A DNA stretch of 64,000 nucleotides from Candidatus Micrarchaeum sp. (GCA_020723935.1 DYHY01000002.1:31465-95464); one strand, 5' to 3'. Counted from the first letter of the stretch, positions 5,838 through 48,853 are shown. Notes: generated by a model not told the origin, from the letters alone. A program made the numbers and translations.

Positions 5838-5846
5838 AAAGGCGTC

Positions 5847-8751: not shown

Positions 8752-8763
8752 GGTATATTAATA
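8752..8763 (+). promoter_or_regulatory. Archaeal TATA-box-like element upstream of the 8789 gene
   Basis: ggtatattaata lies about 30 nt upstream of the ATG at 8789, which fits archaeal BRE/TATA spacing. Confidence 0.4.
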
Positions 8764-8788
8764 GGAAAGGGGGTGGAAGCGAGGGAAG

Positions 8789-9355: not shown

Positions 9356-9389
9356 TGCGGCAAGAAGGGGGAGGAACTGCGTAAGAAGG

Positions 9390-11760: not shown

Positions 11761-11770
11761 GGGGCACAGC

Positions 11771-12331: not shown

Positions 12332-12361
12332 GCGCCATTTAAGCCCTCTCAAAAGGCCAAA

Positions 12362-12375
12362 ACAATAAATAATAC
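12362..12375 (+). promoter_or_regulatory. TATA-box-like element upstream of the 12401 gene
   Basis: acaataaataatac is centred about 30 nt upstream of the ATG. A similar element sits ahead of the degraded paralog at 31102. Confidence 0.4.
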
Positions 12376-12400
12376 AGTAGCATTAACACAAGACAGCACC

Positions 12401-12994: not shown

Positions 12995-13064
12995 GGAAAG
13001 CGCGCCCCGCGGCCGGAAAGCATAAAGACGAAAGGGGGAGCGTGAGCCGCGGAAGGCGGGGAAG

Positions 13065-15316: not shown

Positions 15317-15388
15317 GCATCCAGGGGATTTGGGCCGCGGAAGGGCACATTAATATAGTCGTCTAGTCTCCGTGAGCGAGGATACCAG

Positions 15389-16546: not shown

Positions 16547-16548
16547 AG

Positions 16549-17826: not shown

Positions 17827-18563
17827 CGGGCGAGGAAGCCGGAAGGCGGAGCGGCGGGCGCAGGGCGCAGGGCGCCGAGACGATAGTCGTGCTCATCTTC
17901 ATCGTCGCGATGTTCTTCGCGCTCATCGTCGCTTTGGCGTTCCTCAAATTCAAGGTGAACTTCGCGATAACGGAGGTGAGTGCGCAGGAGGACCAGCTCC
18001 CGACGATGCAGGCGCTCTCCTACTCCACCGTCGGGCGGCTCATAAGGACGCCCGTGCTCTTCTACAACCTCGCTAGCATCGCATCCGTCACGGGCCAGGA
18101 CGTCTTCATCTTCTCGGCTGAGAGCGGCTCGGTGAGCATCCAAGACATACTGAACCAGAAGCTCGAGACGTATTCCGCGGGGCAGCTAGCGCTCTTCTAC
18201 CCCAAGTGCTTCGAATACAACCTGAACGACGAGATGCGCGGACCCCTCTGGACCAAGTTCCTCGCCGCGGGCACGATCCAGGCCGACAGCTGCCAGGAGT
18301 ACGGGGCGAGCCAGGCGGACAAGGGCCAGGAGACGTTTGCCAAGAAGAACTACATCTACTTCTTCCCGCTCCCGCCCCTCTCCGACGGGACGGCGCGCCT
18401 GAGCGAGCAGTTCATCAGGGTCTTCGCCCTGCGCGACAAGCCCAGGATCATGGCCCCCTCCGGAGGGGTGGAGCGGCCCGACTGCAACGCCAACGGCGCG
18501 GCCGCGTCCCTCCCCGAGGACTGCTGCTCTGGAAGGATGGCTGGCGGAGTCTGCATGCCCTGA
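17823..18563 (+). CDS. Pilin-like protein. Last gene of the locus.
   Basis: ATGA overlap. GRRAQG, then AET, then IVVLIFIVAMFFALIVALAFL. C-terminal CC..C motif. Confidence 0.55.
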   Translation: MTGEEAGRRSGGRRAQGAETIVVLIFIVAMFFALIVALAFLKFKVNFAITEVSAQEDQLPTMQALSYSTVGRLIRTPVLFYNLASIASVTGQDVFIFSAESGSVSIQDILNQKLETYSAGQLALFYPKCFEYNLNDEMRGPLWTKFLAAGTIQADSCQEYGASQADKGQETFAKKNYIYFFPLPPLSDGTARLSEQFIRVFALRDKPRIMAPSGGVERPDCNANGAAASLPEDCCSGRMAGGVCMP

Positions 18564-19610: not shown

Positions 19611-19968
19611 TTTGATTTCGTCACTTCTCCTCTGTCCGTCGCTTGCTATGATGAATGAATTGATGCTATCGTCCCAATGTATGCTTCAATCCGGTTTATT
19701 TATGTTTCGGGAATTTGGTCCGGGAACCGCGGTTTTTCCAGTTTTTCTTCGAAAAAAGGGGGCTTTTCGCGGGACGCCATCCTCCAACGGCGCGCAATAT
19801 TGCACCGGGATTGCGCATTGCCGGCATAAATCGCGCTTTGGGGATGCGAATCCTGCTCCTGCAGGGGCGCCCTCCGAGCGCGGGCTAGCCGCCGTGCCGC
19901 CAAGACGCCCCCCGTTTTCCGCTCCGTCCGGAAAGGCGCCGGAAAACGGGAAGGCCGACCGAAGGGCA

Positions 19969-19980
19969 AATCAATATAAC
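19969..19980 (+). promoter_or_regulatory. TATA-box-like element in the AT-rich region upstream of the giant hydrolase gene
   Basis: aatcaatataac lies about 37 nt upstream of the in-frame TTG at 20017. The surrounding 400 bp is distinctly lower in GC than the flanks. Confidence 0.35.
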
Positions 19981-20016
19981 GGAAAGCGTGCTAGCCTCCC
20001 GGGGACCGCGAGAAAG

Positions 20017-23000
20017 TTGGATTCCGACCGCAAGCCCGGGGATGCCCGGCTGGAGCAGGCCGCGCGCACGAGGCATGCCGCAGCCCGGGCCGGAAGCGCG
20101 GGCCGCAGGGGCGTAGGCCCGGCGGTCATAATCATCGGCGGAATCATCGTCGTCGCGATCGCCATCGCCCTGTTCTTCCTCTGGCTCCAGTCGCTCGCGA
20201 CGATTGACTTGCAGGCGGACATCGAGGCTTCCGAGAACAAGTACGTGACCGCGATACATGTCATGGAGGAGGCGCGCATCTACATAAAGACCGCGACGGA
20301 ATACGCGCTGCAGCTAGCAGTCCTGGACGTCTCTAGGCACGGCGGATACATCGAAAGTCCCAAGACAGGATCCAACGGGCTCCCGTACCTGGGCTGGATA
20401 AACCCCGACTGGACGGCCTTCGCGCCGTGGCTCGGGCGCGACGTCTACAGCGAGCACGGTTTCCCGCTCAGGTGCCCGGAGAGCGACAGCGATTACGCGT
20501 TCGTCATCACCCCGCCGCAGGTGAGCGACCCCAACGCCCGGCCCCTTGTCGACAAAATACTGCGCGAGATAAACTACTCCGTCCCGCCGATGCTTGAGCA
20601 GTACGTGCAGATCCTCGAGAGCAACTCGTCGCAGTACAAGCTCAACATCACAGTCTGGGACCACAACGCCGGGAGCTGGTATTTCAACAAATTCTGCCTG
20701 GACTTGGGCGGCCCGGCCCTCCCGAACGACCCGGCCCTCTGGAGCAACATTGAGAGTTCGGGGGTCGCGTGGGTGAAGGCGGGCTTCGCCTGGGGGGACA
20801 TCCAGTCCGCGCAGGGCGGGGAATACGACTGGACCCGTGTTGACGCGCTCTACACGGAAGCCGAGAAAAGGAACATAGAGGTGATCCCGATATTCGGCTG
20901 GCCGCCGCAATGGGCGAGGACCGAGGCCGGCGTGAACGACGTCTGCATCGGCGGCGGGGCGGGCGGCTGCAGCAACAGGCCCGACTACGACAAGTACGAC
21001 GACTACGCGGCGTTCATCTCGTCCTTCATGAGCCACGTGAAGGGGCGGGGCTGGCAGATCAACTACGTGATACCTTGGGTCCCGGGGATAAACAAGGCCG
21101 ACAAGTGGTCCGCCGTCGGGATCGACACGGCGGAGTTCGCGCGCTTCTTCAAGATAGTCTCGCTCAAGATCAGGGCGACCGAGCCGTCCGTGAAAGTCAT
21201 ACTCCCGGCGCTCACCGAATACGCGGAAGTGTGCGGCTACGACGGGTACCCCCTCGACCCCAAGCCATGGAGCCTCTTCCAGACCGGAGGGGGGTGCGGC
21301 GCGTACGCGTGCCCGGCCGGGAAGAGCTGCGGCGGGGTGAAGTACATAGCCGGCTGCGCGAGCCCTTACGACACCGAGAGCCAGGCGGAATGCTTCGCGA
21401 TAAACGCGGTCGACTGCACGCGCTCCGAGGCGATCCACACCGCCGGCCCCGACGGCAACCTGACATGCCAGCACTACGACTACTGGCACCCCTACATGTA
21501 CGACCTGTCCGTGCGCCCGCCCGACACCAGGCGCGTCGTCTACACCGCGATGACGCAGTCGGCGTTCCTCAACGACCTCTACATCAACGGAATAAATGAC
21601 TATTTCGACGCGATGGAGGTCTGGGGGAGGGGCGCGAGCACCGACGAGCAGCTCCAGCGCGCGGACCTCTACAAAGGGAAGCTCGAGAGATACAAGGACA
21701 CTGAGAAGAAGATATGGTTCGAGCCCATAGTGAGCGACGTGTCCCTTGAGCCGGCGCCCACCGCCCAGTTCATCGCCGAAATCTATTCCAGGGTCCAGCA
21801 GTCGCCCCAGTACGACTATCTGGGGCCTGTCTGCCTCGGCGGATGGGGCCCGGGCACGATATCGGGCCTCGCCGCGCTCAAGAAGCCAATCTACTTCGCC
21901 CCGTGGGGCGAGACCAACCTCACGACGGTGCACGAGACGCGCGTCTACACGACCCCGCCGTCGGTCGTCTCAAGCAAGCAGTTCACGGGCTTCGGGATGA
22001 CGAAATCCGTCGACAACACGACCGCGGCCCTGGGCTTCTCGATACAGGAGATACTCAACGAGGCGAGGATGATAGCCAAGAACCCGTCGCGCGCGGTGAT
22101 GTCCGGCGGCGTATCGTGCTCCTCCAAGAACGGCTTCTGCCCGGCGGCGTGGTGGAAGCGCGGCGACGCGAAATCCTGTCAGATAGGGAACTACGTCTGC
22201 CCGACGGACGCGGGGGACGGCGAGATAACCTGCAGCGCGAACGAGGTCGTCCCCTACAAAATGACATGCACCGCGGTCGCGGCCCTCTACGAATACACCT
22301 GCGTCGTCGATTCCGACGACTATCCGGGGCCGGGGGTCCCCTACGTCAACGCCAACTCCTGCAATGAGGGCGTGACATGGGTGACCGGGCAGGACGCCGC
22401 CGGCGGGGCGACCCTCGGGAGCAAGGGCGTGTGCGTCGCGCTCAAGGACGCGAAAGACAACGAGATCAAGTGCAGCCAGATAAACAAGGACAGCCACCGC
22501 CTCGGGATAAAGAACCCGTTCATATTCTGCAGGAACGTCGACGACCAGTGCTGCAGCTGGTCCGACACCCCCTACGAGTACGAGAAGGACCTGAGCATCG
22601 CCAAGCAGAGCACCGGATGCTATTGCCAGGCGCTTAACCCCAGGAGCGGCAGCCCCGGGGACCCTGGGGACAGCAGCGTCAACGACGGGCCCGCGGGAAA
22701 ATTCTTCTGCACTGGAGGCATACCCAGCTACAAGTGCGACTCGTGGTTCGGGGCGGACGGATGGGTGGCGAACGACCTGGGCACGGTGGACTTCGGAACG
22801 GACTATCCGGACGCCTACATGTCCGGCTGCAGGAACGAGGGAAGGAACCACGGCGGCGTTCCTTGGGTCGAAATATGCACGAAAAATCCAAAACCCTGCT
22901 ACGACAGCGCATACGATGGGCAGTCCCCGCCGCCGGAGATATCTTTGACAGGCCCGGACTGGGGCGCGTTCCACTCTGAAAGCAAGCCTCCTGAATGCGC

Positions 23001-26000
23001 GGCCGCCGGTGCCGACTGCGAGCTGGGTCCGGAAGAACCGCAAGGTTGTGGCGGAGACTTCTTTTCAGACGGGGCCGGCCACTGCTGCAAGATGGTCGGC
23101 ACTCCTCCACAGCCAGATTGCAGCAGGGACGAGCCCACGAAGCGCTTCTGGTGGTGCGAGGCCAAGGACACGGATCCGAGCGCCCAACCGCCCGAAGAGA
23201 AGCACGTCCCGTGCGGCGACGAGGGGTCCGGCGTCCCGGGGCTTTGCACGCGCCAGAGGCCCGGAGACAAGAAGATCTACAATCCCCTGCCCTGCCCCGG
23301 GCCCAACGGATGCTTCGGAGCGCTCCGGGGCGCGCCCTACCAAATACCCAACTACAAGGAAGGCTGGAAGGGCGACGCGCCGGCGAGCGAGATAGACGGC
23401 GGCCGGGTGTGGGGCAACGTCCCCGAGGAAGGGGAGAGCGTCGCATTCCACCTGCAGAGCGCAGCGGGGGGGAGCCTTAACAAGTGCGCGGATTCCGTAG
23501 AGGATCCCGCGTACCCGTATCCGGACAACGCCATGGAATGCTGGGACGCGAGGCCCGTCCCGACGCTCAACAAGATCCATGACCCGGAGCAGAAGCGAAA
23601 CGATGTGCGCCTCTCGCGCCTCGACTGCGAGGTGACGGTGACCAACGCCCGCTGGGCCCTCCTCTCGCTCACGCAGGGCGAGCTCACATCGGCCGACGCG
23701 TTCAAGAGCTTCCCCGACGAGTTCAAGTTCAACCTGGAGCTCCAGTACCGCGACAAGGACTGCCTAAGAGGCATAGCCGCGGAGGGCGACCCGCCGAGGC
23801 CCAAGTCAACGAAGTTCGAGGAGGGGCAGGCATTCGAGCACGACTGCACGTTCTACCGCCTGCCCAACACAGAATGGGCCAAGGACCCGGTGCCGGGCGA
23901 CCCGTGGCCCCCCGACACCGAGCCGATACAGCGCCTTGAGCACAAAAACCTGCCCGTGCCCCCGGGCTACAAGACGCTGGACATACAGGGCGCGAGGAAC
24001 TCAATACCGGGCTGCTGCGGCTACGAGAAGAACAACACCGAGTTCAAGGCGACGATAAACTTCGGCTACGACATAACCCCGCCCGGGCCGGTGAACGGCC
24101 TGAACAACCCGGGGGCGGGGAGCGCCGCGGACCTCACCCCCGTGCCGGCGATCGGGGGCTGCGGCTCGATAAAGCCCTCGTTCACGAGCTCCTCGCAGAT
24201 ACCGAACCTGGCGCTCTTCCAGCAGGTCTCGCAGGAGACAGGGGTCCCTGTCATCTACCTCCTCGCGAGGGGCTGGGACGAGTCGGGCCTCAACCACTTT
24301 TCCACGGACGGGGTCACGGTCAAGGGCTGCACGAGCGGCACGAGCGGATGCCACGGGTACATCGGCATAATGGCGGTCTCCGCATCGATCCCGGGCGTGA
24401 CCGACATCCTCACCAACATCCGCGAGGGGGCGAGGAAGCTGAAGGCGGACATCGACAGGGTCGGGAGCTTCCAGGGCGCGGTCATGATGTATTCGGGCGG
24501 CCCGACGGGGGGCTGCCAGCACATAACGACGCTCCTGGGCGGGACGGTCGGGGGCTTCTACGAATACGACCTCTCCAAATGCAAGAAGCCACCCGCAGAC
24601 TGGGTCCCGCAGCTGTCCACGATAACGAGCAGGACATTCAGGGACCCCAAGGTCCTGATCTACAACCAAGGGAGCCCGTCCCTGGACGATCGGCAGATAT
24701 CGCTCTACGGCTATTCGATCGAATGGCAGAACGCCTGCGCGCTCTTCAGGGATTACGAGGCGGTGCAGGTGATAGCCCCTCTATTGGGCGGAGGCAGCTC
24801 TGCGACGACAACCACGACTGCCGGGCCCAGCCCTCCGGCGGGGGGCTTTGAGCTCGGCGGCCAGGTGGCGGGCGGCCTCTCCGACAACGCCCTCGCCAAG
24901 ATGAAGTGCTCAGGCATGACGTGGGTGAAACAGCAGATAAGGTGGGTCCCCGGCGCGAACCCCCAGGATCCGAAGGGCCTGATAGACGACATCCACGGCA
25001 AGGGGCTGAAAGTCCTCCTCAGCATAACGGGCGACAACGGGAATCCGGCCGCCTTCCCCACGCCCGCGCAGTTCGACAGCTACGCCTCCTACGTGGCGGG
25101 GGTCGCGACGCTCGGGCCCGACGCGATAGAGGTCTGGAACGAGCCGAACCTTGACAGGGAGTGGCCCAACGGCCAAGTGAACGGTGGGAATTACGTCAAT
25201 CTCCTCAAGAAAGCGTACCCGGCGATCAAAGCCGCGAACCCGCAGGTCCTGGTGATTTCGGCGGCGCTCGCGGAGACCGGGGCCGCCGGGAGCGCCGGAT
25301 GCACGGCGGCCTACTGCAACTACGACACGTTCCTCGGGCAGATGGCTTCGGCCGGGGCGGACGCCTACCTCGACTGCGTCGGAGCCCACTACAACAGCGG
25401 CGTCGTCAGGCCTACGTCCTCGAGCGGCGACCCGCGCGCGCAGGATCCCAAGTACAGCTACTTCTCTTCCGTCAAGGACACTTACAAGGCGGCGTTCCCC
25501 GGCAAGCCCGTGTGCTTCACGGAAATAGGCTACTTCTCCAGCGACGGGTTCTCGGGGGCGCCGGCGGGGATCAACTTCGACCACAACCTCGCAGACCACG
25601 CGGCATTCGACGGCGAGATACCGACGGCCTCCAAGCAGGATTCGTTGGTGAAGCTCGCCATAATATGGAACGTGGACTTCACGTTCTACGACCCGGCGGG
25701 CGACCCGCAGGCGGGCTGGGCGATAATACGCCCCGACGGGAGCTGCCCCGCGTGCGCGGCGATGGGCGCGGCGATGGGGGCGCCCGGCGCATCCAGCTGC
25801 GCCTCCGCCGGCGGCGGGATCAACGGGGACGAGGAATGCGCGAACGGCAGCCCCTATCCCGGCGAGGGGGGGATGGGCGGGGGAGGCGGCGGGGGCGGAG
25901 GGCCCTACCCGCCCGGAGGGATCGGGGCGGGAGACTACTGCAACCCAGTCCCCACTTCGACGAGCTTCGGCAACCTGTTCTGCGCGTGGAACGGGCACAA

Positions 26001-26475
26001 CGGCCTGGACTTCATGGCCAACGAAGGCGACCCCCTCTACGCGATACAAGAGGGCACAGTCATCTTCGCGAGGGACAGCTTCAACGAGAACTGCGGGGAC
26101 GCGAGCCTTCCGCCCGGATACGTGCGCTGCGGCCTCTGCGAGACGAGGTGCTACAGCTGCAGCAGGAACGCCCTCGTCATACAGCACCCGGACGGCAGGT
26201 ACAGCACCTACCTCCACCTCAAGCCGGGGAGCATCCTTGTGAGGAGCGGGCACGTGAACAGGGGCCAGCAAATAGCCCAGATAGGGGACGAGGGCTGCTC
26301 CAGCAGCCCCCACCTGCACCTCGAGATGGCGACCCTCGGCTCGCTAGGCGGGCAGGACAGGGGCTGTAACTCGGGGACCGACTGCTGTAAGGCTTCCTCG
26401 TACTACGGCCCGCTGTTCAGCGCCAAGACGATAGACCCCGGACCGTACACGCAGAGACTATGCACGGCGCCCTAG
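20017..26475 (+). CDS. Giant membrane-anchored multidomain cell-wall hydrolase. Domains: GH TIM-barrel-like, Cys-rich modules, SLT-like lysozyme, GH5, M23 peptidase.
   Basis: The track ORF runs 19612..26475 (2287 aa), but its first ~160 codons look like GC-frame noise. The TM helix (VGPAVIIIGGIIVVAIAIALFFLWL, about nt 20101–20180) is preceded by the in-frame TTG at 20017. GH5 motifs are IEVWNEPN (about nt 25129) and CFTEIGY (about nt 25519). SLT-like motifs are ARGWDESGLN and GYIGIMAV (about nt 24250–24390). M23 motifs are HNGLDF and PHLHLE (about nt 25990–26320). The start codon is uncertain. Confidence 0.8.
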   Translation: MDSDRKPGDARLEQAARTRHAAARAGSAGRRGVGPAVIIIGGIIVVAIAIALFFLWLQSLATIDLQADIEASENKYVTAIHVMEEARIYIKTATEYALQLAVLDVSRHGGYIESPKTGSNGLPYLGWINPDWTAFAPWLGRDVYSEHGFPLRCPESDSDYAFVITPPQVSDPNARPLVDKILREINYSVPPMLEQYVQILESNSSQYKLNITVWDHNAGSWYFNKFCLDLGGPALPNDPALWSNIESSGVAWVKAGFAWGDIQSAQGGEYDWTRVDALYTEAEKRNIEVIPIFGWPPQWARTEAGVNDVCIGGGAGGCSNRPDYDKYDDYAAFISSFMSHVKGRGWQINYVIPWVPGINKADKWSAVGIDTAEFARFFKIVSLKIRATEPSVKVILPALTEYAEVCGYDGYPLDPKPWSLFQTGGGCGAYACPAGKSCGGVKYIAGCASPYDTESQAECFAINAVDCTRSEAIHTAGPDGNLTCQHYDYWHPYMYDLSVRPPDTRRVVYTAMTQSAFLNDLYINGINDYFDAMEVWGRGASTDEQLQRADLYKGKLERYKDTEKKIWFEPIVSDVSLEPAPTAQFIAEIYSRVQQSPQYDYLGPVCLGGWGPGTISGLAALKKPIYFAPWGETNLTTVHETRVYTTPPSVVSSKQFTGFGMTKSVDNTTAALGFSIQEILNEARMIAKNPSRAVMSGGVSCSSKNGFCPAAWWKRGDAKSCQIGNYVCPTDAGDGEITCSANEVVPYKMTCTAVAALYEYTCVVDSDDYPGPGVPYVNANSCNEGVTWVTGQDAAGGATLGSKGVCVALKDAKDNEIKCSQINKDSHRLGIKNPFIFCRNVDDQCCSWSDTPYEYEKDLSIAKQSTGCYCQALNPRSGSPGDPGDSSVNDGPAGKFFCTGGIPSYKCDSWFGADGWVANDLGTVDFGTDYPDAYMSGCRNEGRNHGGVPWVEICTKNPKPCYDSAYDGQSPPPEISLTGPDWGAFHSESKPPECAAAGADCELGPEEPQGCGGDFFSDGAGHCCKMVGTPPQPDCSRDEPTKRFWWCEAKDTDPSAQPPEEKHVPCGDEGSGVPGLCTRQRPGDKKIYNPLPCPGPNGCFGALRGAPYQIPNYKEGWKGDAPASEIDGGRVWGNVPEEGESVAFHLQSAAGGSLNKCADSVEDPAYPYPDNAMECWDARPVPTLNKIHDPEQKRNDVRLSRLDCEVTVTNARWALLSLTQGELTSADAFKSFPDEFKFNLELQYRDKDCLRGIAAEGDPPRPKSTKFEEGQAFEHDCTFYRLPNTEWAKDPVPGDPWPPDTEPIQRLEHKNLPVPPGYKTLDIQGARNSIPGCCGYEKNNTEFKATINFGYDITPPGPVNGLNNPGAGSAADLTPVPAIGGCGSIKPSFTSSSQIPNLALFQQVSQETGVPVIYLLARGWDESGLNHFSTDGVTVKGCTSGTSGCHGYIGIMAVSASIPGVTDILTNIREGARKLKADIDRVGSFQGAVMMYSGGPTGGCQHITTLLGGTVGGFYEYDLSKCKKPPADWVPQLSTITSRTFRDPKVLIYNQGSPSLDDRQISLYGYSIEWQNACALFRDYEAVQVIAPLLGGGSSATTTTTAGPSPPAGGFELGGQVAGGLSDNALAKMKCSGMTWVKQQIRWVPGANPQDPKGLIDDIHGKGLKVLLSITGDNGNPAAFPTPAQFDSYASYVAGVATLGPDAIEVWNEPNLDREWPNGQVNGGNYVNLLKKAYPAIKAANPQVLVISAALAETGAAGSAGCTAAYCNYDTFLGQMASAGADAYLDCVGAHYNSGVVRPTSSSGDPRAQDPKYSYFSSVKDTYKAAFPGKPVCFTEIGYFSSDGFSGAPAGINFDHNLADHAAFDGEIPTASKQDSLVKLAIIWNVDFTFYDPAGDPQAGWAIIRPDGSCPACAAMGAAMGAPGASSCASAGGGINGDEECANGSPYPGEGGMGGGGGGGGGPYPPGGIGAGDYCNPVPTSTSFGNLFCAWNGHNGLDFMANEGDPLYAIQEGTVIFARDSFNENCGDASLPPGYVRCGLCETRCYSCSRNALVIQHPDGRYSTYLHLKPGSILVRSGHVNRGQQIAQIGDEGCSSSPHLHLEMATLGSLGGQDRGCNSGTDCCKASSYYGPLFSAKTIDPGPYTQRLCTAP

Positions 26476-26504
26476 GCGGGCGGCAATCTGGAGAAGAGGC
26501 TTAT

Positions 26505-27149
26505 ATGAACGAATGGCGCAACACGGGATACGGGGGAAGGTCGCTCCTGCTTGCCGCGGCGGCCCTGCTCCTGATCGCCGTCCTCGCAGCCCCGGCGGCG
26601 GCCCTCCCTGAGTACTGGCGAGCCGAGCCGCCGGCCAACGGGAGCATCACGCTCAAGCTCGTCTACGTCGTCGTAGCCGCGAACTCAACGCCCGCCGGGA
26701 GGATAAAGCAAGTGGATGTGAGGAACGTGACGATGCCCTTCTCGCTCAACCTCGGAACGTCGGAAGGCGGCGGCGGCCCGTTCGTCCTGCGGGAGGTCTG
26801 GGGGGACGGCTATTCCGCCGAGGCGCGGTTCGGGATAGACGAAAAAAATCCGGCGACGCAGGATGTCTGGCTGATCTTCAACCCGCCCGAGAGCACCGAC
26901 GGCAAGACGCTCACGCTGGTCCTCGAGAACTCGGGGGCGGAACTGGACAGGATGGCGGTGCCCTACTGCGGGGACGGGACGTGCATGAAGGGCGAGAGCG
27001 TCGTCTCGTGCGTGCCGGACTGCGGCAGGTTCCTGCGCCTCTCCCGCCAGCAGGCGTCCAAGGCGGTCCAGTTCCTCGCCGGCGGGATCCTCCTCGCGCT
27101 CCTCGCCCTTTCAGTGTTCTTCGTCGCGAAGCGGATGGACGAGCCGTAG
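26505..27149 (+). CDS. Secreted protein with C-terminal TM anchor
   Basis: Internal ATG of ORF 26460. Signal peptide LLLAAAALLLIAVLAAPAAA. C-terminal helix ILLALLALSVFFVAKR. Immediately follows the giant hydrolase. Confidence 0.55.
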   Translation: MNEWRNTGYGGRSLLLAAAALLLIAVLAAPAAALPEYWRAEPPANGSITLKLVYVVVAANSTPAGRIKQVDVRNVTMPFSLNLGTSEGGGGPFVLREVWGDGYSAEARFGIDEKNPATQDVWLIFNPPESTDGKTLTLVLENSGAELDRMAVPYCGDGTCMKGESVVSCVPDCGRFLRLSRQQASKAVQFLAGGILLALLALSVFFVAKRMDEP

Positions 27150-28976: not shown

Positions 28977-29866
28977 TCACCCTTTGTTTATAAGACTTTT
29001 TGTGGAACAGACCTGCTTCCAGGCCTTCCATTTCCCGGCCTTTCCGCCCGTCCAGTCGAGGAATCCCAGGAGGACGCATAAGGCTTCGAGGAGAGCTGCT
29101 CCGAAGGAATAGAAGAGGGTCGCGAGGACGGGCTCCTGCAGGCGCGCCGCCGCCTTGAAGAGGAAGCGGACCCTCGCGGCCGGGGAGAAGGTGGCTGGCT
29201 GGCGCCCTTTTGCGAGGAGCTGGAAGTGGCCGCAGGCTATCCGGCGCCTCTGGAGGACGAGGTCCGCAAGGGTCTTGGGGCATGAGAGGGAGACTTGACT
29301 TGCGAGCGCGGCTCGTAGACCGTGCGGTAGCCCGCCCTCTCGCTTTCCGACTGGATCCACGCGTCGTCGTTTATCGTCTCCGGGGGCGGGCCCCTTTCCA
29401 GGGAAGCCATCCTGACCGCGAACATCTCCCCAGCCTTGGGGGAGCCGGCCTCTCCGAACATGTCGTGTATCCCCCAGTTCAGGCGCGAGCAGAAGCCTAT
29501 GAAGCCGCGGGGGGCGCGGGGGATCGTCCTTGCGCACGCCATCCCGACGGCCGGGTCGGAGAACCGGGAGGCGAGGCGGCGCATCGATTCCGGCCCGGCG
29601 ACATCGTCGGCCTGGACGAAGACGACGCATCGCGCCCTTTTCGCGCGGGCGTAATCCAGAATCGCCGTCGCCGCGGCGCTCTTCCCGCGCCTCTCCCTGC
29701 TGTAGAGGACCTTGCGCCTCCTGAGCAGCGCGCGCGTCCCGTCCGTCCCGTCGACCGCGAAGACGCAGTTCGCAGGCAGGCTGGGAAGCAGGCGCCTCAT
29801 CCCGTCCTCCTCGTCGTATGCGCAGACGCCGACGAGGAAGGGGGGACTCTCCATCCCGGCACGCAC
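28977..29866 (-). pseudogene. GT2-family glycosyltransferase, apparently frameshifted near 29240–29330
   Basis: ORF 29237..29866 carries GT2-type motifs (VVFVQADDV, WIQSESERAGYRTVYEPRS) and then turns to noise. The overlapping ORF 28977..29630, in another frame, supplies a plausible C-terminal TM helix (PVLATLFYSFGAALLEALCVLLGFL). Confidence 0.4.
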
Positions 29867-29898: not shown

Positions 29899-30603
29899 TT
29901 GCCCGGGATGCCCGCAGCCAGGAAAAAAGCCCTCGTCTCAGTCATCATACCCGCCCTTGACGAGGAGCGCACCATCGGGCGCGTCGTCTCCTCCGTGGGA
30001 AAATCCCTCGCCGGGGAGCGGGTGGAGATAATAGTTGTCGACAGCAGCAGCGGGGACGGCACGGCCAGGGCCGCGCGCAAGGCAGGCGCGCGGGTCGTGA
30101 GGGAGCACAAGCTCGGCTACGGCCTGGCGTATCTCACGGGCTTCTCCGCCGCGAGGGGCGAGACAATAGTCATGGTTGATGCCGACGGGACGTACCCGTC
30201 CGAGGACATCCACATACTCCTTCAAGCCTTCCGCTCGACGGGGGCCGACGTCCTCGTCGGCTCGCGCTTCCTGGGGACGATGCGCGCCGGAGCGATGGGC
30301 CCGATCCTGCGCTTCGGGAACAGGCTGATAACCCTCGCGACGAACATCTTCTTCGGGACGCGCCTCACGGACTCGCAGTCGGGCCTCAGGATACTCTCGA
30401 GGGAGGCGGTCCGGCGGATGGCGCCCCGCGCCGAGGGGATGGAATTCGCTTCCGAGCTCAACGTCCTCTGCGCGCGCGAAAAACTGCGGGTCGTCGAGAT
30501 ACCGATAGACTACAGGCAGAGGGAGGGCGTCTCCAAGCTCAAGCCCCTGCGCGACGGCTTCAGGCATTTCGCGTTCCTCCTGAAAGTGAGGCTCGGCTGC
30601 TAG
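29899..30603 (+). CDS. GT2-family glycosyltransferase (dolichyl-phosphate sugar synthase-like)
   Basis: VSVIIPALDEE, VVDSSSGDGT, MVDADGTYP (DxD motif), and IDYRQREGVSKL C-terminal region. Confidence 0.8.
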   Translation: MPGMPAARKKALVSVIIPALDEERTIGRVVSSVGKSLAGERVEIIVVDSSSGDGTARAARKAGARVVREHKLGYGLAYLTGFSAARGETIVMVDADGTYPSEDIHILLQAFRSTGADVLVGSRFLGTMRAGAMGPILRFGNRLITLATNIFFGTRLTDSQSGLRILSREAVRRMAPRAEGMEFASELNVLCAREKLRVVEIPIDYRQREGVSKLKPLRDGFRHFAFLLKVRLGC

Positions 30604-30690: not shown

Positions 30691-31029
30691 ATGGACGCGC
30701 ACGAGGGGCACGACGAGCACGCACACAGGGAGCACAGCGAGCGGCGCGACGGCAGGAGCAGGGTAGAGGGGACTGTCTTCATCGGGAACAAGCCGCCCAT
30801 GAGCTACGTCATGGCGGTCGTCACCGCCTTCCACAACGGCGCGCCGGAAGTCAAGCTCAAGAGCCGCGGGAGGGCGATCTCCTGCGCGGTCGACGTCGCG
30901 GAGATAGTCAGGAACCGCTTCCTCCCGGGGACGAGAGTGGGAAAAATAGAGATAGGAACCGAGAACGTGACGAGCCAAAAGGGGGAGAAGATGAACATCT
31001 CCTCGATCGAGATAACCCTGCTGCGGTGA
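30691..31029 (+). CDS. albA: Alba-family DNA/RNA-binding chromatin protein
   Basis: The core [52 protein letters not shown] matches Alba (Sso10b) closely. His-rich N-terminal extension. Confidence 0.8.
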
Positions 31030-31101
31030 GCCCGCGGCTTCCAGGGAAAGCCGTTTTGCGGAGAACCGTTAAATAACCCGCGGCGCCGGTTACGGAACAT
31101 T

Positions 31102-32877
31102 GTGCACTGCGAACGGGCGTCTGACTTCGGACGGGGCCGAAGGGCGAGAAGGGCCAGCAAGCAGCCGGTTTGGCTCCTGGTAGCGATACTCTTTGCGGTC
31201 GTCGTCGGCATCGCGATCCTCAAAATGATGAGCTGCGGCACGACGAATTTCGGCACGTTCTCCTAGGCGACCGGCCAGGAGAGCGACCGCGCGGCGATCG
31301 AGACGTTCTGCAGCAACTGGATAAGGCTGCAGGAAGTCGACCTATCGGGCAACATCAACCCGCGAGCTTCTGAACCCAGGCAGACTGAGAAGGCGGGCGC
31401 CGCCGAGATCATGCGCAAGTACGGGTGGCTATCGACCGCGAAGAATCCGGCAACCAAGGAATACTTCGAGCTTATTCCGACGGGCTGCGACTGTATCGTC
31501 TTCCTCGCCTCGACCGCCGGCGGAACGAGCCTTCCGCCGTCGAGCGCCAAGGTGTTTTTGGCGCAGAACGCGCCGCCTGCGGACGAGAACAGGTACAGCC
31601 CCAACACGTGCAGCAACAGGGCCAAGTGCGTCGCAAACAGGCTCGAGGGCCCAAATCCCATCTTCGGAATAAACACCTCCGTGAGCGCGCCCGGCGCAAC
31701 CAACGTTGCTCATAGGGCGGACGTCGTGCCTAACACCTGTTGTGCGGCCGGAGCTGCTGCCTGCCAGCAGCGGGCTCCGGGAGTTGCCGGGACCGGAGAG
31801 ACTGGCGGTGAGTCTGGCACCTCGGCAACTGAGACAACCGCGGCAACTGAGACAACTGCTGCGACGGCAACTGCCGGAGGGATGCAGGTCGCCGCAGGCG
31901 ACAGCTACGCGGGAGGAACGGTGGGAACAGGCGGGCCGTGGATCTCGGGCGCGGTGCCCGAAGAGTGCAAGAGGAGTGGGGAGACTGCCTCGGCGGCGGC
32001 GGCCGAATGCTGCACCTCAAGCCCCGACGGCACCGCCATCCTCTTCATCTACGGGCGCTGCTGCAAGGTGGGAAACGCCAAAATCCTCGACGACGAGACC
32101 GTGCTAAAGTGCTGCGGCCTGGACTACAGCGGAGGCCCGACGGGCCCGGGCTATTGCGCCTACGACGCTCTGCCGTCCGGAACCTGCAAGATGTACGGCG
32201 AGACCGCCGCATCCGCCGCGGAATGCTGCGCCCCAACTCCCAAGGACCCGATAATCTACTCGGGCAGGAGGTGCTGCGGCGGTGACGGCTATTCGTTCAG
32301 CCAGGTCTACCCGGCGCAGGTCTGCTGCAGCGGGACGATCGTCCAAGACGAGCTTCCGCAGGACTGGGAATGCTGGGGGAGCGGAGCGGGCGGCCAGAGA
32401 TGCGGGAGCCCGGGAGAGGCGAAATCCTCGGCAGCGCAGTTCTGCGGCCACGGCGTGGGCGGTTACGTCCCGGAGGGCAATGCCGACCCTATAAGCGTCG
32501 GCTATTCAGGAGGAAAATGCTGCATAGAGGACCTTGGCAGGGTCCCGAGCGATTACAGGGACGCGGGCGCTTCGGCGTGCTGCAGCGGCGACTTTGGGCC
32601 GAGGGCAATTAATTATGCGGCCTTCATCTGCGGAGGCGCGTCATGGCCCGGCTGCAAGATGTCCGGAGAACCCGCCTCTTCCGTATTCGAGTGCTGCGAA
32701 TCCGTCGAGGTTGCCGGCAACACCGCGAGGACGCCTATCTCGGTCCGCTTCGATGACGGCTGCTGCTGCAGGGCGGGCGGTGAAATGATCAATGCTGAGG
32801 AGAGCTCCGCAGTCTGCTGCTCCAACGGGGAGCGGACAATTGACCTCGAAGGGCAGCCGACGAGGATCTGCACCTGA
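31102..32877 (+). pseudogene. Third pilin-family paralog fused to a 480-aa Cys-rich extension (many CC/CCxxG motifs). It has no ATG and carries an in-frame TAG at 31264.
   Basis: The frame runs continuously from the Alba stop. The only plausible start upstream of the TM helix (QPVWLLVAILFAVVVGIAIL) is the GTG at about 31102. TAG replaces the CAG (Gln) seen in the paralog motif FGTFTQATGQESD. Track ORF 31411..32877 is the downstream part. Confidence 0.45.
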
Positions 32878-32998
32878 GCGGGGCGCCAGCTTCCGAGCCA
32901 CTCGCCAAGCCCGCCGAGAAGGGAAATATGGTCACAAACCCGTCCGGGCGTGCGGCCGCCACCTTTTTAACCGGCTCGTGGGAGCGCGCAAGGACAGC

Positions 32999-34036
32999 AT
33001 GAAGGACGCCTACGTCGGAGGGAGCCTGCCCAAGGGGTGCGAGCTCTGCATCCAGGGCGCCAAAATGGTCGTCTTCACGACGGGCGTCTGCGGGATGAAG
33101 TGCTTCTACTGCCCGCTATCCTTCAAGAGGAAGATGAAGAACCAGCCCTTCGCGAACGAGAGGAAGATAATGCGGCTCCCCGACCTCATCAGGGAGGCCG
33201 AGCTCATGCGCGCCAAGGGCGCGAGCATGACCGGGGGCGACCCGGTGATGTCCTTTGCGCGCACGGTGCGCTACGTCAGGGCCCTGAAGAAGAGGTTCGG
33301 AGCGGGCTTTCACATACACATGTACACGACGGGCGAGAGGGCGACTCCGGCCAAGCTCAAGGCCCTGTGCGATGCGGGCGTTGACGAGATAAGGTTCCAT
33401 TTCAACTGCAGGCAGATCCTGGACGCCCTCAGGCTCCCCTGGATCGTCGGGGCGGAGGTCCCGGCCGTTCCCGGCAAGTGGGAGGAGACGGCCGGCTACT
33501 TCAAATTCCTCTGGGAGAGCGGGGCGAGGTTCTGCAACCTCAACGAGCTGGACTGGTCCGAGCAGAACGTAGAGGCGTTCAAGAGGCGCGGCTACCGGCT
33601 CAAGTCCGGGGAAAGCTACGCGGCCAAGGGGAGCGAGCAGATGGCGCTTCGCCTGGTGAGATACGCTCGCAGGCGCTTCCCGGGCCTGACCGTCCACTAC
33701 TGCTCAAGCCAGATGAAGGACGCGGTGCAGGTGAGGAAGAGGTTCATAAGGACGGCGAAGAACGTCGCCCGCCCGTTCGAGCGCGTTGACTCGGACGGCC
33801 TCCTTGTCAAGGGATTCGTCGCGGGCGAGAGGAGGCTACTTGAGGTCCCGGCGCGCCTCCAGGCGTACAGCAGGAAAAAGAAGCGCGTCGAGTTCCCCGA
33901 GCGCCTAGCGGCAAGCCTTGCTGCGATGCCCAAATACCGCGGGAGGGTTTTCGTCGCGTCCGAGCAGCCGACGGCCGATGCGGTCGACCTCGAAATAGAG
34001 CCTGTCGGGCAGAGGTCCGCGCGCTCCGGCTTCTGA
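32999..34036 (+). CDS. Radical SAM domain protein
   Basis: CGMKCFYC (Cx3Cx2C) cluster motif, GGDP motif, TIM-barrel-like length. Internal ATG of ORF 32792. Confidence 0.7.
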   Translation: MKDAYVGGSLPKGCELCIQGAKMVVFTTGVCGMKCFYCPLSFKRKMKNQPFANERKIMRLPDLIREAELMRAKGASMTGGDPVMSFARTVRYVRALKKRFGAGFHIHMYTTGERATPAKLKALCDAGVDEIRFHFNCRQILDALRLPWIVGAEVPAVPGKWEETAGYFKFLWESGARFCNLNELDWSEQNVEAFKRRGYRLKSGESYAAKGSEQMALRLVRYARRRFPGLTVHYCSSQMKDAVQVRKRFIRTAKNVARPFERVDSDGLLVKGFVAGERRLLEVPARLQAYSRKKKRVEFPERLAASLAAMPKYRGRVFVASEQPTADAVDLEIEPVGQRSARSGF

Positions 34037-37547: not shown

Positions 37548-37934
37548 ATGGCAGAGATTGTCAGCATCTCCCTCCAGCGCCGCGAGCTTGACACCCTCGA
37601 CCGGCTTTCCAGGCAAATGGGCTTTGCCGGGAGGAGCGAGGCGGTGCGGGCGGGCCTGCGCCTGCTCTCCGCGGAGGCGGGCGGGCGCGACGGCCTGGCC
37701 GGCCAGGTGCAGGCGGTCCTCGTCGTCGTCCACAGGGAGGAGGCGGAGGGGGCCGTGAACGAGAAGAAGCACTCCTTCGAGGAGATACTCGACACGCAGA
37801 TCCACAGCCAGCTGGGGAACGGCAGGTGCCTGGAAGTGTTCGTCCTGCGCGGCGCCGGCGCGAGCGTGCGCGAGCTCTCCAATTCCATGTCCTCGGAGAA
37901 GGGCGTGGAATCCGCAAAGCTTGTTGTGTCCTGA
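37548..37934 (+). CDS. nikR: NikR-like ribbon-helix-helix transcriptional regulator
   Basis: N-terminal RHH (IVSISLQRRELDTLDRL...GFAGRSEAVRAGL) plus a C-terminal His/Cys-containing ACT-like metal-binding domain (VVVHREE, HSQLGNGRCLEVFVL). Confidence 0.55.
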   Translation: MAEIVSISLQRRELDTLDRLSRQMGFAGRSEAVRAGLRLLSAEAGGRDGLAGQVQAVLVVVHREEAEGAVNEKKHSFEEILDTQIHSQLGNGRCLEVFVLRGAGASVRELSNSMSSEKGVESAKLVVS

Positions 37935-37939
37935 AGGCC

Positions 37940-38554
37940 GTGGCGCGCTTCGAGATACCATGCGCCTCGTGCAAGGAGAAGAACTGCTGCTCGCGCCTCC
38001 GCCAGTTCTCGGCGAGGCGCAGGGAGAGGGAGGACGGGGGCGTCCCGCTCTTCCCGTGGGAGGTGGAGGCGGCGCGCGGCAGGGGCGCAGCTAGGATCTC
38101 CGAAACCGAGCGCGTGAACGGGATAGTCACCCTCTACAGGATGGCTGGGGAGGGCGGGAGCTGCCCGTTCTTCGACAAGGAGAAGAGGATCTGCACCGTT
38201 TATGCCAAGCGGCCCCTCGCGTGCAGGGCGTTCCCGATAGCCAGGTCCGGGATTCTGGAATACCTCGCCAGGAAGAACCCCTCGCCCGAGGGCGAGCTGT
38301 TCTGCATGGGCGGGATAATACCCAAGCTCCCGCGGATGACGCGGGCCAATTTCATCAAGGCGATGGACGAGAGCCTCGGCGCGCAGTTCTGGCAGGCCGT
38401 CCAGATGGACCTCGCCCTGGATTTCGTGAGGAGCCTCGCCAGGCAGGGGATCGCGTTCCAAGACTCCGGCGAAGGGGGGCGGAAGGTCGTCGAGAAGATC
38501 CTCTCCGACCCGATGGAGCTCAGGAAGACGTTCCTCGGGGCGACGGAGAAGTAG
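37940..38554 (+). CDS. YkgJ/UPF0153-family putative Fe–S or zinc-binding protein
   Basis: CASCKEKNCCS and GSCPFFDKEKRICTVYAKRPLACRAFP motifs. Probable GTG start immediately after the nikR stop. Confidence 0.55.
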   Translation: MARFEIPCASCKEKNCCSRLRQFSARRREREDGGVPLFPWEVEAARGRGAARISETERVNGIVTLYRMAGEGGSCPFFDKEKRICTVYAKRPLACRAFPIARSGILEYLARKNPSPEGELFCMGGIIPKLPRMTRANFIKAMDESLGAQFWQAVQMDLALDFVRSLARQGIAFQDSGEGGRKVVEKILSDPMELRKTFLGATEK

Positions 38555-41105: not shown

Positions 41106-42113
41106 TTGAAAGTGGTCGCAAAAATGGGGACTGTTTCAGGCTCCGTTCAGGACAATCATTATAAATTCAATACAAGTAGTGTTGCAATGGTGTTAATAGT
41201 AGAGAAGGAGGGCGGCAAGTACCGCGCGCTCGAGGGCAAGCTCGTGACGCCGCAGGCTTTCGCAGTCCTCCTGCATCCAGTGAGGCTGAAGATCCTCTCG
41301 GAGCTGTCGCGCGAGCCCTCCTACCCCTCGAAGCTCGCCGAGAAGATGAGGATGAGCGAGCAGAAGGTCTTCTATCACGTGCGCGCGCTCAAGAAGGCGG
41401 GCCTCGTCGAGGTGGAGAAGAAGGAGGAGATGCGCGGGGGCCTTGCCAAGTACTTCCGTGCGGTGGATTCCGCTTTCGCGATCAAGCTCTCGGGCGAGAA
41501 GTCCTTCGACCTCCCCGTCGAGGGGCGGAAGGACGCGGGCGCGTTCTTCTCGGCGTTCGCGGACAGGAGCGGCAACTTCGACGGCCTGATCGTCGTGGGA
41601 TCGCCCGACCCGCACGGCCCCAACAAGGCGAGGGCGAGGGACGGCCACTACGCCGCGGACCTCGCGATGCTCATGGGGAAGTTCGCGAGGATCAACGGAT
41701 CGGTGACGCGCACGGACACGGAGCTCAAGGAGAGCGAGCGGCGGCGCAATCTCGTCCTCATCGGCGGGCCGATAACGAACATGGTCGTGGGCGAAGCCAA
41801 CGCGGCCCTCCCCGTCAGGTTCGATCCCGCCCACAACTGGGACATATTCTCGGAGATATCGGGCACGTACTACCACGAGGAGGAATGCGGCCTGATAGTG
41901 CGCGCGAAGAACCCCTGGAACCCAGAGGCGGAGATCCTCGTCGTCGCCGGGAAGAGGTTCTCCGGGACGAAATCTGCGGTCCTCGCCCTGATTTCGAAAG
42001 GGGAGCAGGTCGCCGAGGGGAACGTCGGAAGGAGGAAGGCGTTCGCCAAGGTCGTGGAGGGCGCGGATCTTGACGGCGACGGGATCGTCGATTCGGTCGA
42101 GATAAGAGAGTGA
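41106..42113 (+). CDS. ArsR-type wHTH transcriptional regulator with a large C-terminal domain
   Basis: The HTH region (LLHPVRLKILSELSREPSYPSKLAEKMRMSEQKVFYHVRALKKAGLV) is followed by 230 aa of unknown function. Confidence 0.6.
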   Translation: MKVVAKMGTVSGSVQDNHYKFNTSSVAMVLIVEKEGGKYRALEGKLVTPQAFAVLLHPVRLKILSELSREPSYPSKLAEKMRMSEQKVFYHVRALKKAGLVEVEKKEEMRGGLAKYFRAVDSAFAIKLSGEKSFDLPVEGRKDAGAFFSAFADRSGNFDGLIVVGSPDPHGPNKARARDGHYAADLAMLMGKFARINGSVTRTDTELKESERRRNLVLIGGPITNMVVGEANAALPVRFDPAHNWDIFSEISGTYYHEEECGLIVRAKNPWNPEAEILVVAGKRFSGTKSAVLALISKGEQVAEGNVGRRKAFAKVVEGADLDGDGIVDSVEIRE

Positions 42114-43938: not shown

Positions 43939-43997
43939 GGCCCTGTAGCCGCGCGGGAAAAGCGCTAAAAGCAGGCCGCCCGGCGCACGCGGGCATC

Positions 43998-45170
43998 ATG
44001 GCAGGGAAGAAGAAATACGACGTATACTCGGAAAGCCTGAAGCTGCACGAGAAGCTCAGGGGAAGCTGGAGACTGTCTCAAAGGCGCGCATCAGCAGCAG
44101 GAAGCTGCTCTCCCTCCTTTACACCCCGGGCGTCGCGGAGGCGTCAAGAGTCCTTGCGAAGGACCCGTCGCTTGCGAGGAAGCTCACGGTCAAGGGCAAC
44201 ATGGTCGCCGTCGTCTCGGACGGCTCGGCGGTCCTGGGCCTCGGAAACATCGGCGCGTACGGCGCGATCCCCGTGATGGAGGGCAAGGCCGTCCTCTTCA
44301 AGGAGCTTGGGGGTGTCGACGCCTTCCCGCTATGCTTGGAGACGCAGGATCCGCAGGAGATAATCGGGATAGTGAAGGCCATATCGCCCGTGTTCGGCGG
44401 GGTGAACCTTGAGGACATCTCGGCGCCCAGGTGCTTCGAGGTCGAGGCGCAGCTTCAGGACATCGGGATCCCTGTCATGCACGACGACCAGCACGGGACT
44501 GCGGTCGTCGTCCTCGCGGCGCTCAAGAACGCCCTGAAGGTCGTGGGGAAGAAGGCGGAAGACTGCAAGGTCGTGATAAGCGGCGCGGGGGCCGCGGGCA
44601 CCGCGACCGCCAGGCTCCTCCTCGCGTCGGCCGAAAGGCCGGGTGAGATAGCGGTCTGCGACAACAAGGGCCTCGTCTCCGCCGACAGGAGCGACCTCAA
44701 CGGCCCGAAGGTCGAGCTCGCGACTCACTCTCACCGGCCAGAGAAAGTCGATGGGCCTTGCGGAGGCGCTCAAGGGGACGGACGTCTTCATCGGCCTCTC
44801 CGCGCCCGGGATAGTGACGCGCGGGATGGTCGCGGCAATGGGGAGATCGGCCGTCGTCTTTGCGATGGCAAACCCCGTCCCGGAGATAATGCCCTCGGAA
44901 GCCCTGGCGGCCGGCGCGGCCGTCGTCGGGAGCGGGAGGAGCGACTTCCCCAACCAGATAAACAACGTCCTCGCGTTCCCCGGGATCTTCCGGGGGGCTC
45001 TGGACTCCGGAGCGACGAGGATAACCACGCAGATGAAGCTCTCCGCGGCCGAGGCGATAGCCTCGCTCGTGAAGCGCCCGACGGCGAGGAAGATACTCCC
45101 CGGCCCTCTGGACAGGAAGGTAGCAAGAGCCGTCGCAAGGGCTGTCGCCGGAAAGGCCGCCAGGGCCTAG
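43998..45170 (+). pseudogene. NAD(P)-dependent malic enzyme, interrupted by two compensating 1-nt frameshifts
   Basis: N-terminus MAGKKKYDVYSESLKLHEKLRG is in frame 0. The middle (YTPGVAEAS ... GNMVAVVSDGSAVLGLGNIGAYGAIPVMEGKAVLFK ... SGAGAAG) is in frame 2 (track ORF 44201). The C-terminus (GTDVFIGLSAPG ... ANPVPEI ... NNVLAFPGIFRGAL) is back in frame 0 (track ORF 44751). The shifts sit at ggaag (expected ggaaag) near 44066 and at gagaaagtc (expected gagaagtc) near 44735. Confidence 0.7.
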
Positions 45171-45171
45171 C

Positions 45172-45852
45172 CTAGCGCGCCTTCTTCCGCTTCTTCTTCG
45201 CCTTCCCGCCTTTCCCGGGGCATCCCCCGGCCTCGGCTTTCCAGCAGAAATAGGAATATGCTATGGGCACGAGGGCGCCGACGAGGAGGATCCCCAGTAG
45301 GAACCCTATGCTCTCCTTGGCGACTAGGGCGTAGAGGGCCATCACCGCGCCCGTGGCGATGAAGGTCTTGCCGCCCAGGTCGTGCGTCCGCTTCCATACC
45401 CGGTCGCTCGAAAGGCTCCAGGGCGTCCTTATCCCGCAGAAGTAGTTCCTCGGGACCCTGGGGAGGACGAAGCCGAGGTAGCCCATGAAAAAGCCGGAGA
45501 GGAACATCGCCCAGGAGGCGACGTCAGTCCCCTTCCCCAGGTACGACGAGAGGATGACCGCGTTGAGCGCGAAGAAGAACGCGCACGCTCCGAAGGACAC
45601 CTCCCCGAGGACAGTCCCCAAAGACGCCTTCTTCTCCTCGTTGACTATCGGGTCTATCTCATGGAGCTTCTCGATGACGAGGAAGACCACCGCCGAGATC
45701 GCCGGAAGGAGGAAGAGCCCGATGTCGCGGGAGGCGAAGCCGTCCGCCTGGCCGGCGATGTTCCAGTGTATCGGGACCGTGGCGGGCACGAACGGGTAGA
45801 TGAATAGCGAGAGCAGGAACGACGCGGCGACCAGCACGAAAGTCCATCTCAT
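45172..45852 (-). CDS. SdpI/YhfL-family membrane protein
   Basis: DUF1648-like N-terminal helices and the SdpI-like motif TPWSLSSDRVWKRTHDLGGKTFIATG. Confidence 0.6.
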   Translation of the reverse strand: MRWTFVLVAASFLLSLFIYPFVPATVPIHWNIAGQADGFASRDIGLFLLPAISAVVFLVIEKLHEIDPIVNEEKKASLGTVLGEVSFGACAFFFALNAVILSSYLGKGTDVASWAMFLSGFFMGYLGFVLPRVPRNYFCGIRTPWSLSSDRVWKRTHDLGGKTFIATGAVMALYALVAKESIGFLLGILLVGALVPIAYSYFCWKAEAGGCPGKGGKAKKKRKKAR

Positions 45853-48410: not shown

Positions 48411-48692
48411 ATGGCACGCAATAAGAGAGGCGCGTCGGGCGAGCGCCGCGGGGCGGGGAGTGCGATCTTCGCGATCCTCCTCCTCGCGATTGCCGTCTTC
48501 CTGGCCGGATGCGCGGTCCGGACGGGGGCGCCGGCGGGCGGGCAGCCTCAGCAGCAGCAGCAGCAACAGGCAGACACGTTGTCGGACCAGGAGCTGGACT
48601 CTATCGGGCAGGACCTGAGCAGCTTCGACCCGACGGCGGACGCAAGCCAGCTGGACGTCCCGGATTTCGACGGCGACCTGACGGGGCCGTAA
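48411..48692 (+). CDS. Small lipoprotein with poly-Gln tract
   Basis: Lipobox LAGC, then Q9, then an acidic tail. Confidence 0.5.
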   Translation: MARNKRGASGERRGAGSAIFAILLLAIAVFLAGCAVRTGAPAGGQPQQQQQQQADTLSDQELDSIGQDLSSFDPTADASQLDVPDFDGDLTGP

Positions 48693-48853
48693 GAATCCGC
48701 GGCGCGAAGGAAGCGCAAGCGGAGCCCGGGAAGGGGACCGGGCTCCGCGCAAGTTATTTTTCCTGTTTTTTTTTTTCCTGCGGAAAAATATATTTTTCCG
48801 CGCGCGCGGATGCGACAAACATAAAAGGCCGCGCGGATTGGTGCGAGACAGTC

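Follow-up and report, generated by a model that had tools for sequence, protein, structure and literature searches.

The interrupted reading frame at 31102-32877 (+) of the window, the 64,000-nt stretch of DNA that was analysed here, is best explained as a young nonsense pseudogene, whose product would once have been a secreted, Cys-rich surface protein with a pilin-like anchor, a reading to which we give a probability of about 0.7. The ancestor would have been an intact gene running from GTG 31102 to TGA 32877 and encoding a 591-aa surface protein with a basic N-terminus, a hydrophobic helix, a helical disulfide-type ectodomain, a Thr/Ala-rich linker, and four Cys-rich repeats. The helix would have been of the kind common to ~12 pilin-like proteins encoded in a nearby TadA/FlaI-type ATPase cluster, and the four repeats would most plausibly have made up an adhesive module that sat on a type IV-like filament or next to one. 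One C-to-T change at the inner cytosine of a presumed CCAGG site would have converted CAG (Gln) into TAG, and the residue that it hit would lie in the variable linker just after the helix. As this organism terminates efficiently at TAG, translation would now stop after 54 residues, and the 536 codons 3' of the TAG would be left without a start, a promoter, or an export signal. We infer both the adhesin role of the ancestral protein and the loss of function of the TAG-interrupted gene. The initial annotation had described the locus as either a pseudogene or a gene that depends on readthrough; this was the right question, it came with an accurate description of the gene, and the evidence favours the pseudogene side of it.

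The locus is made up of the following features, all of which are on the plus strand.

31069-31076, plus strand: TATA-like box TTAAATAA, 26-33 nt 5' of GTG 31102, a putative promoter
31102-31263, plus strand: first 54 codons, with the GTG start, an Arg/Lys-rich N-terminus, and the hydrophobic helix of the pilin-like family domain
31165-31230, plus strand: hydrophobic helix, within the first 54 codons
31264-31266, plus strand: in-frame amber codon, in the context TCC TAG GCG versus ACC CAG GCC in paralog 12401
31267-31710, plus strand: rest of the family domain, a predicted helical ectodomain with Cys residues and the motifs FC..W, GCDC, and C..C
31411-32877, plus strand: 488-aa ORF reported by gene callers, from an ATG 3' of the TAG, without the helix and without an export signal
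31711-31956, plus strand: junction, with a CC/C cluster (31732-31770) followed by a Thr/Ala/Gly-rich low-complexity linker (31771-31881)
31957-32874, plus strand: four tandem Cys-rich repeats of 71-85 aa each, with the pattern C-x3-GE-x7-ECC ... CC ... CC ... C
31957-32181, plus strand: repeat R1
32182-32394, plus strand: repeat R2
32395-32649, plus strand: repeat R3
32650-32874, plus strand: repeat R4

A check of the sequence confirmed that TAG 31264-31266 is in frame with both GTG 31102 and TGA 32875-32877, and that it is the sole stop from the stop codon of the Alba gene (31027-31029) to 32877, as had been described. The frame from GTG 31102 to TGA 32877 comprises 592 codons and corresponds to a readthrough protein of 591 aa. 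The description of the start also holds, GTG 31102 being the sole in-frame ATG, GTG, or TTG codon ahead of the helix, and a non-ATG start of this kind is ordinary and unremarkable. A/T-rich boxes are located at a comparable distance 5' of the genes for paralog 12401, Alba, and the radical-SAM protein, and the combination of the box TTAAATAA, as a putative promoter, with GTG 31102 fits a leaderless mRNA.

Two intact relatives of the interrupted gene are encoded elsewhere in the window.

11771-12331, plus strand: intact paralog in the type IV filament-like gene cluster
12401-12994, plus strand: intact paralog in the same cluster

The frame had been called a third paralog, and the comparison bears this out: it is 35% identical to 11771-12331 and 51% identical to 12401-12994, which makes it a divergent member. 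Paralog 12401-12994 reads FGTFTQATGQESD, with CAG at the codon that matches the TAG, as had been noted. The premature stop is flanked by homology on both sides, 22 of 39 aa being identical to paralog 12401 before the TAG and 70 of 119 after it, and an alignment of the 12-member family spans the TAG. Searches for the family, with paralog 12401 as the query and by an exhaustive HMMER scan, covered 5.8 billion clustered proteins and 1.84 billion representatives. The family consists of ~12 proteins of 169-201 aa, all from unclassified archaeal MAGs or metagenomes, and it is recognised by neither Pfam nor NCBIfam. The GTDB species genomes contain orthologues of paralog 12401 only, in two unclassified archaeal MAGs, and none of the family proteins found carries the Cys-rich extension.

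The amber codon had been placed at a conserved Gln position, and this part of the description does not survive the alignment. The column is occupied by Q, S, G, T, K, or N across the 12 sequences, Q is found only in paralog 12401 and three other family members, and in the AlphaFold model the column falls in the linker that connects the helix to the globular domain and that is modelled with low confidence. Given the codon contexts of the target and paralog 12401 listed above, it is reasonable to infer that the immediate ancestor of the target had CAG at this codon. Over the 37 codons directly 3' of the TAG, 33/37 amino acids are identical to those of paralog 12401 with 11/37 third-position differences, which argues that the frame was under purifying selection until recently; the same comparison does not point to recent gene conversion. 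In alignment A2, which counts the target among its members, the family residue is kept in the target at 25 of 25 invariant columns. The target departs from nearly invariant positions at E20K, P76L, and F104M, and it alone in the family is missing the acidic residue just before the helix (SKQPVW versus SEQPIW or SMDQTIW); there is no second stop and no frameshift. Apart from the TAG, the frame, the family-invariant residues, the Cys patterns of the repeats, the promoter-like box, and the start codon are all intact. The lesion is recent, because the remaining 591-codon frame is intact.

The intact remaining frame is also the main reason why readthrough keeps some weight against a pseudogene. According to this alternative, site-specific readthrough or suppression of the amber codon, mediated by pyrrolysine or by a near-cognate or suppressor tRNA, would yield a 54-residue membrane peptide together with some 591-residue protein. 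The long 3' frame, which was recently under selection, is consistent with this, as are the promoter-like box and the start codon, both of which are intact. Any residue should be tolerated at the position of the TAG, which falls in a linker that is variable and flexible, and a single lesion in a tolerant linker is the expected look of a readthrough site. The use of TAG elsewhere in the window argues against it. The 49 intact genes of the window, which were hand-curated by codon-position GC pattern and domain content, end in TGA in 30 cases, in TAG in 15 (31%), and in TAA in 4. The TAG-ended genes include those for EF-2 (54994-57180, minus strand), where the Pfam domains stop 20 residues earlier, and EF-1alpha (52911-54182, minus strand), where a TGA one codon later forms a tandem stop. 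Were TAG read as sense, no fewer than five genes (26460-27149, 37826-38554, 45172-45852, 54265-54966, and 54994-57180) would extend by >60 nt into a neighbouring gene in another reading frame. In the preprint by Kivenson et al. (bioRxiv 10.1101/2024.09.30.615893), out-of-frame overlap of >60 nt is termed 'Category 4' and is taken as evidence against reassignment, whereas high TAG usage alone is compatible with Pyl machinery in archaea, a point in favour of readthrough. Because of this compatibility, the overlap test and the further points given here weigh more than TAG frequency. TAG is a genuine, efficient terminator here.

Additional evidence on decoding comes from the genes and RNA of the 64-kb window, in which no tRNA, no Rfam family, and no PylB/PylS-like gene was detected. 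The radical-SAM gene next to the target was considered as PylB and rejected, as it has no match to PylB. A stimulatory RNA structure 3' of the TAG was not found, the 100 nt from the TAG folding at -32.5 kcal/mol with z = -0.49 versus shuffles. The best named relatives of the neighbouring aminotransferase are from unclassified archaea and Aenigmatarchaeota, with ≤61% identity, which weakly suggests a DPANN-type archaeon as the probable host. These groups are absent from the Pyl-encoding lineages listed in the section consulted of the preprint (bioRxiv 10.1101/2024.09.30.615893). The sole other in-frame TAG in the window, in a DipZ-like gene, sits in a gene that is dead. Genome-wide recoding of TAG was considered after this second in-frame TAG and was rejected, as Category 4 overlaps are common and the second TAG gene is frameshifted; the same-frame TAG junctions at 5625, 5835, and 28310 were also considered as recoding sites and are true stops between separate genes. 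In comparison with pyrrolysine-using or 'Code 34' archaea, as described in the same preprint, the target is alike in that homologous sequence flanks its in-frame TAG on either side ('Category 1'). It differs in that the window contains several Category 4 genes and TAG-ended translation factors, that the sole other Category 1 case is frameshifted, and that the window has neither pyl genes nor a tRNA. We consider site-specific readthrough or suppression at this codon to be quite improbable.

The nonsense-pseudogene reading also requires that the TAG be the true state of the sequence. The base could instead be a consensus or sequencing error, or one allele beside an intact CAG allele: the sequence comes from a metagenome-assembled genome, DNA damage typically leaves C-to-T artefacts as well, and the Logan sample shows micro-diversity, the end of contig L007 differing from the window by one codon. 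However, Logan contig L001 (run SRR13164374) is 100% identical to window positions 30765-33144 over 2380 bp, TAG included, and spans the site at 31264 unbroken, which weakens the case for a consensus error, with the qualification that both assemblies may share reads. Two Logan contigs of this run show the identical TAG of the target, and the TAG and the frameshift of the DipZ-like gene are both reproduced in L007, from the same run. A literature search for run SRR13164374 returned nothing. Additionally, a search of JGI metagenome contigs with the exact DNA pattern carrying N at the mutated base, so that either allele would match, gave neither allele. A wrong or polymorphic base is considered unlikely.

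A third alternative concerns the coding capacity 3' of the TAG. As had been stated, the first start 3' of the TAG is ATG 31411, which gives a product of 488 aa that lacks an N-terminal hydrophobic segment, and the Logan gene call at the locus is exactly the 31411-32877 ORF. The 488-aa product is missing from the protein collection, although this collection includes the two paralogs, which come from the same 96,408-bp NCBI contig; its absence fits a submitter annotation that lists no protein at the locus. If the downstream ORF were functional, ATG 31411 would start a 488-residue cytoplasmic Cys-rich protein and the 54-codon ORF would encode a separate small membrane protein, which matches automatic gene calling and a coding-like GC pattern by codon position in both ORFs. 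However, ATG 31411 is located inside the conserved family domain, at the FRKYGW motif, and a start there would truncate this domain. Neither a comparable A/T-rich box nor a well-spaced purine-rich ribosome-binding motif is found 5' of this ATG, and the 12 CC pairs and the Thr/Ala linker look extracellular, yet the product has no export signal. A functional downstream ORF is hardly credible.

Two further genes of the window are broken.

62992-64000, minus strand: pseudogene of a DipZ/CcdA-type thiol-disulfide oxidoreductase, with its upstream part in Logan L007:1-1268
43949-45175, plus strand: broken malic-enzyme gene with at least 2 frameshifts

In the DipZ-like gene, TAG 63765-63767 (minus strand) replaces a Trp that is aligned in M. 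tuberculosis DipZ (PDB 2hyx). The gene is frameshifted between the thioredoxin and C-terminal domains, possibly at a G6 run at 63441-63446, and once the frames are stitched together, the DipZ match extends over residues 11-333 with E = 4.6e-51. The CcdA-like membrane part, which lies upstream on L007 past the end of the window, features further stops and another frameshift; one of these stops is at what we take to be the expected position of an active-site Cys. Since this sole other gene with an in-frame TAG is also frameshifted, it is dead. The malic-enzyme gene matches positions 3-92 of the Pfam domain Malic_M (NAD-binding) in one frame and positions 97-257 in another, with the junction near 44740, and a further shift lies near its N-terminus (MAGKKKYDVY...), which occupies a third register with respect to the segment ...LLYTPGVAEA.... 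A lookup of the malic-enzyme ORF in other assemblies returned no record. Indel noise in the assembly was rejected as the source of the frameshifts, as EF-2, EF-1alpha, and a 2287-codon (6.9-kb) ORF are intact and Logan repeats the DipZ lesions. The intactness of the long essential genes and of the 2287-codon ORF indicates that the lesions are gene-specific and mark real pseudogenes. The broken genes amount to 3 of ~55 in the window, and this proportion gives a high prior for a pseudogene at the target locus.

The two in-frame ambers share a mutational context. Both (31264 and 63766) correspond to a C-to-T change at the inner C of CCWGG, where the original sites are reconstructed: in the target, CCAGG would have become CTAGG, and in the DipZ-like gene, CCTGG would have become CCTAG, the equivalent change as read from the opposite strand. 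Such a context applies to only 15.8% of the CAG and 11.9% of the TGG codons in the window genes, giving a joint chance of ~0.02. A C-to-T change at the inner C of a Dcm-type CCWGG site is the classical signature of 5-methylcytosine deamination, and classical CCAGG amber hotspots in E. coli lacI were reportedly described by Coulondre and Miller in 1978. The target resembles the lacI hotspots in that the inner C of a CCWGG site is hit, with CAG becoming TAG (and TGG becoming TAG in the DipZ-like gene), and in that an otherwise intact gene is truncated by one change. It differs from them in that only two events are at hand, that the host is an uncultured archaeon, and that the window shows no depletion of CCWGG (observed/expected 0.93-0.95). 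That deamination of methyl-cytosine produced both ambers is a lead, drawn from the sequence of these two events. CCWGG methylation may be a real hotspot that drives amber pseudogenes in this lineage, and this is somewhat more probable than a useful decoding of the amber. The latter would mean that this uncultured, DPANN-like archaeon decodes the amber often enough to be of use, through a suppressor tRNA, Pyl, or context leakiness, such that a leaky stop doses the full-length pilin-like surface or filament adhesin, with its previously unseen four-repeat CC-motif domain, versus the short membrane peptide; we regard this as very improbable. If the TAG were truly read through, it would be a rare recoding case outside the known Pyl lineages.

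The part of the protein encoded after the TAG is unusual in its own right. The description of a CC-motif-rich extension is well founded, as 35 of its 381 residues are Cys and 12 CC pairs occur in it, and the Cys pattern is intact in all four repeats. An 18-bp tandem repeat is present at 31819-31856, inside the Thr/Ala/Gly-rich linker. In the AlphaFold model built from the family alignment (mean pLDDT 85), a membrane helix is followed by a linker of poor definition and then by a globular domain that is entirely helical, and a comparison of this model with the PDB by Foldseek gave a best E of 5.9 and no pilin. A single-sequence AlphaFold model of the Cys-rich extension has a pLDDT of 34 and is unusable. 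The repeats presumably bear a likeness to granulin-type and other CC-motif disulfide-ladder repeats, with a single Cys at the ends and several CC pairs between; they differ in a far longer spacing (71-85 aa) and in the lack of a Pfam match even at E = 10. Searches of 1.84 billion representative proteins, of the JGI metagenomes, and of Pfam at this same permissive threshold gave no homologue of the repeats. An orthologue of the target was likewise not found in the 5.8 billion clustered or 1.84 billion representative proteins, the GTDB genomes, or the JGI metagenomes, and a protein-guided scan of the JGI metagenomes with the target gave no match. The 591-aa query returned 8000 word-sharing candidates and zero hits, and this search was probably swamped by low-complexity words.

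There are two sides to the 'pilin' label that had been given to the gene. The N-terminal architecture and the neighbourhood of the paralogs support it, whereas Pfam, NCBIfam, and the fold comparison do not. The N-terminus consists of a basic stretch followed by the helix; at this point the target reads RRASKQPVW and the family RK[SAG][SA]EQPIW, a deviation from the canonical [KR][GA] site. The model is all-helical after the membrane helix and thus does not have the pilin fold, in which a long N-terminal helix packs on a beta-sheet head. An assembly ATPase and a membrane platform protein are encoded near paralogs 11771 and 12401; the target is outside this cluster, 18 kb away from it, between the Alba and radical-SAM genes. 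The type IV filament-like cluster itself spans 10-18563 (+) and includes the following genes.

10-2310, plus strand: T2SSE/TadA/FlaI-like ATPase, which opens the cluster
3558-5627, plus strand: polytopic membrane protein of 689 aa
6661, 7237, 8173, 8789, 9390, 11101, 11771, 12401, 13065, 13661, and 17802, plus strand: examples of the small cluster proteins
15389-16546, plus strand: SLT transglycosylase-domain protein

The small proteins of the cluster number ~12, and in each of them a basic N-terminus precedes an Asp/Glu residue and one hydrophobic helix; no Pfam or NCBIfam match was obtained for any of them. Two of these, 8173-8721 and 8789-9355, have very similar N-terminal sequences and appear to be a second paralog pair. 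When the target family is compared with archaeal type IV pilins, which feature a class III signal peptide and FlaI/TadA-type ATPases, the basic N-terminus, the one hydrophobic helix, and the cluster of the paralogs with its TadA/FlaI-like ATPase and polytopic membrane protein are alike. In contrast to these pilins, the [KR][GA] cleavage motif is inconsistent in the target family, and the predicted globular part is all-helical, with no PDB match and no Pfam or NCBIfam pilin model.

Several other genes of the window deserve mention. Directly 3' of the filament cluster is an ORF of 2287 aa (19612-26475, +) with a C-terminal M23 peptidase domain at residues 2128-2241, and it also holds a weak glycoside-hydrolase-like stretch. 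Cell-wall-degrading domains are unexpected for an archaeon, and their presence in this ORF suggests that a bacterial partner, or one that contains pseudomurein, is attacked or adhered to. Immediately 5' of the Alba gene are two divergent genes for family-2 glycosyltransferases, 29237-29866 (minus) and 29899-30603 (+), of which the former has a partial Pfam match (positions 2-117 of 168). The deoxyhypusine synthase gene at 48509-49966 (+) encodes an N-terminal extension of ~165 residues without a Pfam match. An unusual fusion is encoded at 41106-42113 (+), in which an ArsR/SmtB-type winged-helix domain (residues 55-104) is joined to an S-layer-like outer domain (PF05124, residues 194-297).

The nonsense-pseudogene phenomenon is ordinary, and mild interest lies only in the orphan repeats and the CCWGG coincidence. 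As a pseudogene, the locus carries little weight beyond correct annotation: the 488-aa 'Cys-rich protein' that is called there would be a truncated artefact of a broken 591-aa gene. Ambers at the inner C of CCWGG provide a cheap, testable hint of Dcm-like methylation and of its mutational cost in an uncultured archaeon. The genome would contain several decaying genes, as expected of a reduced, symbiont-like archaeon. The intact ancestor would have had an orphan architecture, in which a pilin-like anchor is joined through a linker to four CC-motif repeats and for which there is no relative among the billions of proteins searched; this combination of anchor and repeats is a candidate host-attachment module.
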